32,000 nt of DNA from Promethearchaeota archaeon (GCA_030606485.1 JAUWGH010000005.1:270001-302000), one strand, 5' to 3'. Counted from the first letter of the stretch, positions 5,916 to 9,057 are shown. Program-made: numbers and translations. The notes: generated by a model from the letters alone, not told the origin.

Positions 5916-7196
5916 TTAATTACTTATTTCTAATTTTTTTTTATCCCAATTAACTCCAAGAAGTACATCTCGACTTCTCTCGTTCTTATATAGAATAGGG
6001 AAATTTCCTAAATTACTTATTTTTTCTGCGAATTCTTTTATATCTTCAAATTCTGGGAAATAGAAATCTAGATCTTCAGAAGATTTTAGGCGTTCTTTAA
6101 TTAATAATGCTTTAGCTTGAAGTGTAAATCCTTTAATATCTAAGAAGTTAGGTTTTGCCCGTTTTATTATGTCTAAATATTCTTTAACAAATATTTCCTT
6201 TAGATTTAAATTTTTAACTGCAGTTATTCGGATAACTGTTCTACATGATAATGAGCCTAATAAATCCATAGTCTTCATTAATTTTTCCCAGCTATTTTTA
6301 AGCATAGGTCTGCAAATTTTTTTATAAGTTTTTTCATTAGAGGCTGATAGAGAAATATATAATTGAGAAGGAAAATACTCTATTGATTCGATTCTCTCAG
6401 GGAATGTGCCATTTGAAACAATAAAAGTCGTCATTTTTCGCTTTTTAAATTCTGCAACAAAATCAGAGAGTAAAGGATATAAAAAAGGTTCCCCATCAAG
6501 TGATATTGCCGCATGTTTTGGTTTCATTGATTCTTCATGAACCTTTTCAATTTCTCTTAAAGTCGTGATATTTTTATTTACTAAAGGTTCAATATCCACG
6601 TCAGACTTTATTTGTCTTTTGATGCTTTTCTTTATAAAATAATGGTTAATATCACCCTCAATATAATCCAAAAACCCCATATTTTTTAGAAATACTATAG
6701 CCCGATCTATTTTGGTTTTACTGGCATCTATTATTCTTGATATTGATTGAATTGATTCAGATTTATTATTTTTCAATATATATTTCAGAATTTTAATTAT
6801 AATATGATAATTATCAATGTATCTCTTTAATGGTAAATGATTTTGAATAAGATTTTTTTGATGTCGAATCATTTCATTAACCAATTGCTTGGGTTCATCT
6901 GGTACAACATTAAAGGTAGCACCCAATGAACTCTGAAGATCTCGCCAACAAAATACACATTGATGATTACAAAAAGGAACAGATGGCGTATTTTGCAGAC
7001 ATAAATTACTTTTTACACCAAAAATACCTTTATAACAATTTTGATTATCTCTTCCGGTCATTAACCGCTGTTCTAACCAGTGACATGGTTTTATCGCCGA
7101 ATGTTTATTTTTCCCAACAATACGATAATTAGATTTTAGGTAATCTTGTATAAATTGCTCCGTTATTTCATTTTTCCACTTTTTTTCTGTGCTCAT
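5916..7196 (-). CDS. taw1: 4-demethylwyosine synthase Taw1/TYW1 (radical SAM, tRNA-Phe G37 modification) with an internal insertion
   Basis: YRIVGKNKHSAIKPCHW, CYK (catalytic Lys), CLQNTP, CNHQCVFCWR (CxxxCxxC), HAAISLDGEP, FIVSNGT, QLYISLSA, RTVIRIT. Confidence 0.92.
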   Translation of the reverse strand: MSTEKKWKNEITEQFIQDYLKSNYRIVGKNKHSAIKPCHWLEQRLMTGRDNQNCYKGIFGVKSNLCLQNTPSVPFCNHQCVFCWRDLQSSLGATFNVVPDEPKQLVNEMIRHQKNLIQNHLPLKRYIDNYHIIIKILKYILKNNKSESIQSISRIIDASKTKIDRAIVFLKNMGFLDYIEGDINHYFIKKSIKRQIKSDVDIEPLVNKNITTLREIEKVHEESMKPKHAAISLDGEPFLYPLLSDFVAEFKKRKMTTFIVSNGTFPERIESIEYFPSQLYISLSASNEKTYKKICRPMLKNSWEKLMKTMDLLGSLSCRTVIRITAVKNLNLKEIFVKEYLDIIKRAKPNFLDIKGFTLQAKALLIKERLKSSEDLDFYFPEFEDIKEFAEKISNLGNFPILYKNERSRDVLLGVNWDKKKLEISN

Positions 7197-7293
7197 CTAA
7201 TTTAATTTAAGTATTTTAATTAATATAAATTAAGTATTTTAGAGGAAAAAATGAATATTTAATACTAGCCTTAAAATTAAAATCTAATCAAAT

Positions 7294-8202: not shown

Positions 8203-9057
8203 TTAAGCTTCAATAAATTTTGGCTCTTGAAAATTTTGATTATATTGTTTTAAAAGATTTAAGTTTACATTATATATATTTTTCCCCTTCCCTTCCACCG
8301 ACTTGAGGAGATCGAAATTTAACAAGCGTTTAATATGATATTGAATTGTCCCATGGAAAACTTCTAAATCATTAGCAATTGCAGTAATTTTTTTAGAAGG
8401 TTCTTGGATAAAGGCTTTTAGAATCGCAGGTATTAAATTATTCTGGAATAATATTACTAAAACTTCGTATTCTTCAGGAAAGTCCTTTAGAAAGTAATAT
8501 AATGTTTTTCCAAATTTTCTTGATCTTACAATTTCAAATTTTTCAAGAACAATCAAATATTTTATAAAAGGATTTCTTGTAATTTTGAGTTCTGATTCTA
8601 TCTTTTTACTTCTACCATGAATACCTGGATTAGATTCTATAAATTTAATAATTTCTTGATATTTTGGATTATTCAAAATCTCTTCTTTTGTTCTTCTCTC
8701 ATTAGTCACAATCCATTTTTTCTGTTCTAATGACCGAATCGCTAAAAATAATTCTTCCTTACTATAGCCCCTTGAATATGATAATTTTGCAATACAATCT
8801 GCATATAGCTTTTCTACCAATGGAGGTAAAGTCTCAACTCTTTCAACAGAGATTTTTGAATCAAATTTTTTTAATTTCAATGTTTTTTTGGCAATCTTTA
8901 GAACATCCTTCTCAATTTGAGATAATTCTTCAAAATCAGAAATCTTTTCAATAATATCAACTTTTTCTTTAATTATTTGAACTCTATTAGTTGATTTTTC
9001 TTCTATTTCTGATTTTTCTTTATCTCTTCTTTCTTGTAACGACATTTTTTTCACCAT
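8203..9057 (-). CDS. Multi-winged-helix transcriptional regulator (ArsR-like/COG3398-type)
   Basis: Two clear wHTH units (IIKFIESNPGIH...LIVLEKFEIVRS and ILKAFIQEP..ITAIANDLEVFHGTIQYHIKRLLNFDLL) and a possible third upstream (YSKEELFLAIRSLEQKKWI). Confidence 0.75.
   Translation of the reverse strand: MVKKMSLQERRDKEKSEIEEKSTNRVQIIKEKVDIIEKISDFEELSQIEKDVLKIAKKTLKLKKFDSKISVERVETLPPLVEKLYADCIAKLSYSRGYSKEELFLAIRSLEQKKWIVTNERRTKEEILNNPKYQEIIKFIESNPGIHGRSKKIESELKITRNPFIKYLIVLEKFEIVRSRKFGKTLYYFLKDFPEEYEVLVILFQNNLIPAILKAFIQEPSKKITAIANDLEVFHGTIQYHIKRLLNFDLLKSVEGKGKNIYNVNLNLLKQYNQNFQEPKFIEA

Follow-up and report, generated by a model that had tools for sequence, protein, structure and literature searches.

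Taw1/TYW1 is a well-studied radical S-adenosylmethionine (SAM) enzyme that condenses pyruvate with 1-methylguanosine at position 37 (m1G37) of tRNA-Phe. The archaeal enzymes of solved structure are Pyrococcus horikoshii PH1705 (2yx0) and Methanocaldococcus jannaschii MJ0257 (2z2u, 6djt). Both are single-domain proteins of 311-342 residues, with approximately 10-24 residues in the barrel loop that joins helix alpha1 to strand beta2 and with a canonical C-terminal motif, K-x-Y-M-x-V-G-Y-S, that bears no extension. The present text deals with a Taw1 encoded in a stretch of 32,000 nucleotides from a Promethearchaeota archaeon (GCA_030606485.1, JAUWGH010000005.1:270001-302000; hereafter, "the window") in which the same loop holds, instead, an insert of 98 residues.

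The window Taw1 and the solved enzymes share (i) the radical-SAM core; (ii) two [4Fe-4S] cysteine triads; (iii) the Schiff-base lysine; and (iv) the GGE motif; in Asgard relatives, identity over the two aligned blocks is 37-49%. In a paper from 2021, archaeal TYW1 homologues were described as single-domain proteins (PMC8941971). Eukaryotic TYW1, for its part, likewise consists of a Taw1 core plus an accessory domain (PMC8941971), but the eukaryotic addition is an N-terminal flavodoxin that binds flavin mononucleotide and not an internal winged helix. No description of a two-domain Taw1 like that of the window was found in full-text literature searches on Taw1/TYW1. The winged-helix Taw1 is a clade-wide, two-domain variant of a known enzyme family, and it offers a clear-cut, naturally occurring example of domain insertion into a loop of the radical-SAM barrel.

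The insert and its host enzyme

Aligned with the Taw1 structures of Pyrococcus and Methanocaldococcus, the window protein does not align through but breaks into two blocks (query residues 16-118 and 217-413). In P. horikoshii Taw1 (2yx0), the first block stops at residue 123 and the second begins at residue 133, leaving about 98 residues of the window Taw1 (aa 119-216) with no counterpart in the solved structures; by comparison with 2yx0 itself, the surplus is approximately 90 residues. A previous sequence-only reading of the window had placed some 95 extra residues at positions 6552-6836 (aa 121-215); these coordinates are correct, the full insert being slightly longer (Table 1). The length of the segment between the flanking anchors was then compared in 81 aligned sequences (30 insert forms, 2 intermediate forms and 49 canonical or eukaryote-type forms): it measures 92-115 aa in the 30 insert forms, as against 10-15 aa in every one of the 49 others (12-13 residues in eukaryote-type TYW1), with intermediate inserts of 74 and 82 aa in P0128 (366 aa) and P0137 (392 aa), respectively. 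What sits in the alpha1-beta2 loop of the barrel is a winged helix of approximately 70 residues followed by an acidic linker of approximately 28 residues.

That the insert is a winged-helix domain is well supported by structure prediction. In the full-length AlphaFold2 (AF2) model, three helices (H1, 121-143; H2, 149-155; H3, 160-172) precede a wing formed by a beta-hairpin (strands 176-179 and 182-188), after which three further helices are predicted (190-193, 199-209 and 213-223). When the insert was modelled alone, from an alignment of 24 diverse sequences with 22-55% identity to the insert of the window, the model reached a predicted local distance difference test score (pLDDT) of 92.1 and a predicted TM-score of 0.83. 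In a VIA-align search of this model against 48,161 representatives of the PDB, the 50 best matches were, without exception, winged-helix domains, headed by ZBP1 Zalpha (Z 9.4, root-mean-square deviation (rmsd) 1.2 over 64/64 residues) and followed, among others, by ADAR1 Zbeta (9.3), TtgV/IclR (9.0), the winged helix of Pyrococcus abyssi Rpa2 (8.9) and cullin WHB domains (8.3-8.8). Taken as a group, Zalpha/Zbeta, TtgV, Rpa2 and cullin share the fold of the insert with Z 8.3-9.4 and rmsd 1.2-2.9 over 63-78 residues; the SelB winged helix matches with Z 7.7 and rmsd 3.3 over 66 residues. These known winged helices differ from the insert in that sequence identity is only 8-18% and in that the insert is embedded in a loop of an enzyme.

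Further searches point to the same fold. Foldseek assigned the insert a probability of approximately 1 of matching regulators of the IclR, SarA, MarR and Rrf2 types, at E ~0.01, a value to be expected for a short domain. Similarly, at E up to 0.1, Pfam models for helix-turn-helix (HTH) and winged-helix families were matched weakly by the 24 inserts: TrmB in 9/24, HTH_11 in 6/24 and HTH_24 in 5/24, along with HTH_5, Rrf2 and ArsR, the best match overall being TrmB (E 9.9e-06). The insert of the window itself stays under the Pfam cut-offs (HTH_5, 15.3 bits versus 22; TrmB, 14.8 bits versus 25.6), and a profile search of PDB sequences with the insert listed proteins of the IclR, TFE, Lrp and ArsR types. 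The winged-helix-like pattern perceived in the sequence-only reading is hence borne out by AlphaFold and Foldseek, which returned a confident winged-helix model and not a disordered segment or another fold.

An origin of the insert as an intein or intron was considered and rejected: splicing motifs are lacking, the segment yields a good in-frame fold and purifying selection acts on it. Inteins are recognized by an N-terminal Cys/Ser and a C-terminal His-Asn followed by Cys/Ser/Thr. The insert begins with N-H-L-P-L, ends in an acidic helix and has ~98 aa, where an intein would be expected to have ~130 aa or more; no intein family appeared among the Pfam matches of the window Taw1 or of the insert sequences.

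Table 1. Position in the window of the taw1 gene and of the parts of its product (aa, amino acids of the Taw1 protein; HMMER, profile-based alignment).
Feature	Position	Strand	Basis or remark
taw1 gene	5916..7196	(-)	Open reading frame (ORF) of 426 aa; sole Taw1/TYW1 homologue of the genome
Auxiliary [4Fe-4S] cluster region, aa 38-66: C38, C54, C66 and Schiff-base K56 (CYK)	6999..7085	(-)	Alignment to M. jannaschii TYW1; invariance among relatives
Radical SAM CxxxCxxC motif, aa 76-83 (C76, C80, C83)	6948..6971	(-)	Alignment; invariance
Core helix alpha1, aa 102-118, last element ahead of the insert	6843..6893	(-)	AF2 model; end of first HMMER block
Whole insert, aa 119-216, alpha1-beta2 loop	6549..6842	(-)	Gap between HMMER blocks; length comparison
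Predicted winged-helix core, aa 121-188	6633..6836	(-)	AF2 model and structure matches
Predicted recognition helix H3; S159, K160, K162, R165, K171 and N172 conserved	6681..6722	(-)	24 insert sequences
Acidic helical linker to the barrel, aa 189-216; D201, E203 and E215 conserved	6549..6632	(-)	
Strand beta2 with SAM-binding GGE-type motif HAAISLDGEP, aa 228-237	6486..6515	(-)	Alignment; invariance
Variant, extended C-terminal segment, aa 355-382 (KGFTLQAKALLIKERL...FP)	6051..6134	(-)	25-39 aa with the insert versus 19-25 aa in canonical forms

With regard to the host enzyme, the ORF matched only Taw1/TYW1 when searched with phmmer against all PDB chains (2yx0, E 7.7e-58; 6djt and 2z2u, E ~2.5e-41). 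Its top NCBIfam model is TIGR03972 (TYW1; E 1.5e-80), although the curated equivalog cut-off is not reached (270.5 versus 317.95 bits) because the insert splits the profile match into two stretches. In Pfam, the ORF matches Radical_SAM and, weakly, Wyosine_form, HTH_5 and TrmB (the last two at aa 135-186). The Wyosine_form match (PF08608; E 0.02, 15.6 bits versus a cut-off of 22) covers only profile positions 28-61, the first half of the Wyosine_form domain being replaced by the variant, extended C-terminal segment. As already pointed out from the sequence alone, the Fe-S cysteines and the CYK lysine are intact. C38, C54, C66, C76, C80, C83, K56 and the GGE-type motif are present and invariant in 16 relatives; moreover, C38, C54, C66 and K56 pair with the cysteines and the lysine of M. 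jannaschii in the 6djt and 2z2u alignments, and C76, C80 and C83 align to the CxxxCxxC motif of 2yx0 and 2z2u.

The genome to which the window belongs is that of a Lokiarchaeon (3.75 Mb, 13 contigs, completeness score 100%) and holds one Taw1 homologue, which falls inside the archaeal Taw1 radiation in the tree; the next-best matches to the family profile, none of them stronger than E 4e-9, are generic radical-SAM proteins. Two members of the Trm5/Taw2 family are likewise encoded in the genome; Taw3 was not found in it. Both the substrate and the preceding enzyme are thus present, and the Taw1 step has no candidate other than the window protein, the organism's only predicted 4-demethylwyosine (imG-14) synthase. 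Given that all the catalytic parts are intact, the insert-bearing enzyme most likely still makes imG-14. It is very improbable that it has taken up a new function, i.e., another substrate RNA or a reaction other than imG-14 synthesis. A TIGR03972 score under the cut-off, the poor Wyosine_form match and the altered C-terminal motif would fit such a change; nevertheless, the low score reflects the splitting of the profile, all the catalytic residues are invariant and this sole Taw1 coexists with a tRNA-Phe(GAA) that has G37 and with the two Trm5/Taw2-family genes.

The C-terminal end of the protein is altered as well. In place of the canonical motif, K-x-[YF]-x-x-[VL]-G-x-[SA]-x-x-R-L, the window Taw1 has KGFTLQAKALLIKERL, and the segment from K355 to the conserved proline (P381) is lengthened in insert forms (Table 1). 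Within the order of the window, a helix replaces the VG-x-S part (KGFTLQAKALLIKERL; helix 360-369 in the AF2 model), and the exact form KGFTLQAKALLIKERL is confined to this order; Baldrarchaeia and Wukongarchaeia keep a canonical-looking motif, after which ~14 residues have been added. It is the C-terminal extension, not the exact motif, that accompanies the insert. The change of motif noticed in the sequence-only reading is real, but in that precise form it is specific to the order, and only the extension is found clade-wide with the insert.

Distribution, origin and selection

A whole-protein search was carried out in 400 genomes of the phylum. Taw1 was recovered as a full-length single match, in open frames of ~410-480 aa, in each of the four families of Lokiarchaeales, the order to which the window belongs, and the insert form was also found in two families of Baldrarchaeota and in one family of Wukongarchaeia. 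The other 26 Asgard families sampled, three of them from the window's own class, lack the insert and match in two separate blocks (frames of 302-374 aa). Carriers of the insert include (i) in Lokiarchaeales, the cultured model organisms Promethearchaeum syntrophicum MK-D1 (QEE17802.1, 442 aa) and Ca. Lokiarchaeum ossiferum (UYP45136.1, 452 aa), together with Ca. Harpocratesius repetitus; (ii) many metagenome-assembled genomes labelled 'Promethearchaeota'; (iii) Ca. Baldrarchaeum yapensis and other Baldrarchaeota; and (iv) Ca. Wukongarchaeum yapensis. The two-domain enzyme is, in consequence, a feature of a large Asgard clade with members in culture. Since neither eukaryote-type TYW1 nor the other 26 sampled families have the insert, it has no direct bearing on the origin of eukaryotes.

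Every sampled genome has one type of Taw1 gene only. The sole tandem duplication of Taw1 among these genomes concerns two canonical genes (genome G015, contig C1, 169251-170138 and 172661-173488), with frames of 324 and 302 aa, located ~2.5 kb apart on the same strand.

Beyond these genomes, only approximately a dozen representatives out of 1.8 billion proteins clustered at 50% align unbroken across the insert, P0128 and P0137 being among them. The taw1 gene, insert included, was found in metagenome assemblies from eight studies (cold seeps, vents, sediments) and, hence, the insert is not an assembly artefact; no RNA dataset is listed among the datasets carrying taw1. In GenBank/RefSeq, the orthologues of P. 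syntrophicum, Ca. H. repetitus and L. ossiferum are labelled 'radical SAM protein' or 'hypothetical protein' (orthologues so labelled include QEE17802.1, UYP45136.1 and MCF2139859.1), because the insert drops their score under the TIGR03972 cut-off. As a result of this annotation gap, wyosine synthesis in Lokiarchaeales could be counted as absent by automated pathway surveys.

A maximum-likelihood tree (quick search) was built from the 81 sequences after removal of the insert and of the variable C-terminal columns. All 32 insert-bearing forms make up one clade, with a support of 90 in the Shimodaira-Hasegawa-like approximate likelihood ratio test (under the 95 star threshold), whose sister is a canonical metagenomic sequence of 316 aa (P0133). 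Insert presence requires one change on the tree; since the insert forms are united in a tree made without the insert columns, a single origin suffices. An approximately unbiased (AU) test on this quick-search tree, with a group chosen after the tree had been seen, rejects a tree that unites the Lokiarchaeales sequences with canonical Taw1 from the remaining orders of that class (p 1.2e-5). With Lokiarchaeales, Baldrarchaeia and Wukongarchaeia, the gene is present in three different classes, which calls for gene transfer or ancient paralogy. The simplest reading of these sequence comparisons is that the insert arose once, followed either by gene replacement through transfer or by the sorting of ancient paralogues. 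Gene tree and taxonomy are in conflict, which suggests that a core gene of tRNA modification has been replaced between Asgard classes.

A donor of the insert was not found among paralogues in the genome, stand-alone proteins or the ESM Atlas. More specifically, a hidden Markov model of the insert searched against the six-frame ORFs of its own genome gave a best non-self match of E 7.7e-4, attributable to generic winged-helix similarity; no stand-alone relative of aa 117-218 was obtained at E up to 0.01 among word-indexed proteins of <234 aa; and the ESM Atlas search returned no usable match.

Selection was estimated from the ratio of nonsynonymous (dN) to synonymous (dS) divergence in four species of the genus, using pairs with dS >0.1. 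The dN/dS values are 0.22-0.41 for the insert (98 codons) and 0.16-0.20 for the core (303 codons); at larger distances, dN is 0.30 for the insert versus 0.15 for the core, i.e., approximately two-fold higher. The insert is constrained coding sequence under purifying selection, less so than the catalytic core.

Putative role of the insert

Radical-SAM enzymes that act on tRNA commonly carry an RNA-binding module, for instance the TRAM domain of MiaB/MtaB, and winged helices that bind RNA are known (SelB, Zalpha domains). Winged helices usually contact phosphates through the N-terminal half of their recognition helix. In the 24 inserts, conserved non-hydrophobic columns are found (i) at the start of H1 (H120, R125, N129); (ii) on H3, where they are kept across the clade; and (iii) in the linker (Table 1). 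The net charge of the H2-H3 segment ranges from 0 to +8 in 23/24 inserts and is positive in 22 of them. On account of this conserved Ser/Lys/Arg face of H3 and of the precedent of TRAM, the role favoured here is that of a built-in accessory RNA-binding module of Taw1. Through this face, the module would hold the tRNA body by its backbone, with a higher affinity or a better orientation of tRNA-Phe as the effect, and the choice of the tRNA to be modified would not be altered. Judged on sequence and analogy, such a tRNA-gripping role is about as credible as it is doubtful; that the insert raises the affinity for tRNA, or improves its positioning, is possible.

The methylthiotransferases MiaB, MtaB and RimO may serve as a working analogy for this role: they are radical-SAM enzymes with an auxiliary cluster (PMC5352715), involved with tRNA position 37 and provided with an RNA-binding TRAM domain. 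TRAM, however, is a C-terminal beta-barrel and not an inserted winged helix, it has no homology to the insert and no Pfam match to it was found in the window Taw1.

Several observations weigh against tRNA gripping. Firstly, the complete insert is not basic throughout the 24 sequences (net charge from -8 to +7), and its wing is variable and not basic. Secondly, judging from the topology of the radical-SAM barrel, the alpha1-beta2 loop would lie on the face opposite to the cluster and the active site. Thirdly, several of the top structural matches (cullin WHB, the Rpa2 winged helix) bind proteins. In addition, the full-length AF2 model is of moderate confidence (pLDDT 71.6; 73-91 in the insert region) and, in a comparison of seven genomes with the insert versus five without it, no feature of tRNA-Phe tracks the insert across the three lineages.

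Some of these observations speak for a protein-protein module instead, used for dimerization or for the docking of Trm5/Taw2 or of an electron donor; in the latter variant, it would be the functional counterpart of the flavodoxin domain of eukaryotic TYW1. The turning of the insertion point away from the active site, as the barrel topology suggests, and the Z-scores of 8.3-8.9 for cullin WHB and Rpa2 would agree with such a module, and an acidic ferredoxin would be an equally conceivable partner for the basic face of the helix. Furthermore, the full-length model matches plant-type (COMT-like) O-methyltransferases in Foldseek (E ~1e-4) through a winged helix placed beside a SAM-binding alpha/beta domain. 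In these methyltransferases, nevertheless, the winged helix is N-terminal and serves for dimerization, the catalytic domain is a Rossmann methyltransferase and not a radical-SAM barrel, and TM-scores are low, at 0.16-0.20. Against a protein-binding role, the recognition helix opens with a conserved S-K-x-K-x-x-R pattern of the type that contacts the phosphate backbone, and no gene for a partner lies nearby, the neighbours being a GTPase, a nucleoside phosphorylase and an HTH protein. We know of no partner protein of archaeal Taw1, which has been described as single-domain (PMC8941971). All in all, a protein-protein module is a doubtful alternative that still deserves some weight. The narrower proposal that the winged helix and the C-terminal extension together form a docking platform for an electron donor or for Trm5/Taw2 appears unlikely; were it true, an independent, Asgard-specific counterpart of the eukaryotic flavodoxin-TYW1 fusion would have been found.

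Likewise unlikely is a purely structural addition, tolerated although it binds no ligand of its own and retained because it has become integrated in the fold, for instance by packing on the C-terminal extension. The extension does accompany the insert, the divergence of the insert at larger distances is about double that of the core and no sequence relative was found outside Taw1. But H120, R125, N129, S159, K160, K162, R165 and K171 remain conserved at an insert identity of 22-30%, and dN/dS is well under 1.

The sequence-only reading had gone further, proposing a tRNA- or DNA-binding module that changes substrate recognition or confers a regulatory function. Neither of these two outcomes found backing. 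In the tRNA-Phe comparison mentioned above, the anticodon arms do not differ between genomes that carry the insert and genomes that lack it, and the nucleotides specific to Lokiarchaeales (G9 and the variable loop GYATC) are not common to Baldrarchaeia and Wukongarchaeia; given that no tRNA-Phe feature co-varies with the insert, a changed specificity is unsupported.

As for regulation, most winged helices of the IclR, MarR, TrmB and ArsR types bind DNA, and Taw1 might also act as a transcription regulator, for instance of its own gene. Upstream of taw1, 97 bp separate it from a divergently oriented nucleoside-phosphorylase-like gene; this intergenic region is AT-rich, of low complexity and with weak palindromes only. 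It contains AAAATACTTAA (read on the minus strand) twice, ~26 bp apart (window 7206-7243), but the repeat is not kept in the species of the genus that has diverged most, which lacks the distal copy of AAAATACTTAA. No convincing conserved operator was found upstream of taw1, the five genus-level regions compared being too conserved overall to single out a site. Besides, the domain lies within a loop of an enzyme, and the binding of an operator usually needs a dimer. A DNA-binding role is accordingly regarded as improbable.

Neighbouring gene, Taw3 and the tRNA-Phe gene

Two genes away from taw1, at 8203-9057 (-) of the window, a protein of 284 aa is encoded with a weak match to the HVO_0163 N-terminal HTH model (28.9 bits versus a cut-off of 31); no link to taw1 was seen.

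The co-distribution of Taw3 was tried as a clue to the insert and turned out to be uninformative: Taw3 (PF02676) is absent in 40/42 Asgard genomes, whatever their type of Taw1. Unlike Taw3, Taw1 is nearly universal in the sampled Asgard genomes. With Taw3 missing in 40 of the 42, wyosine-type modification would end at imG-14, imG2 or a yW-86-type product.

The tRNA-Phe(GAA) gene of the Lokiarchaeon, with G37, lies outside the window, on contig C2 at ~150314-150416 (+). It has an intron of ~29 nt in the D-loop, is miscalled by ARAGORN as tRNA-Ser(cga) and is matched by the Rfam tRNA model in its 3' part only (31 bits). Introns in the D-loop of tRNA-Phe are present in both insert and insert-less groups, with none in the tRNA-Phe of P. 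syntrophicum MK-D1; they occur in most of the sampled Asgard genomes, i.e., in Lokiarchaeia, Baldrarchaeia, Wukongarchaeia and three insert-less families.

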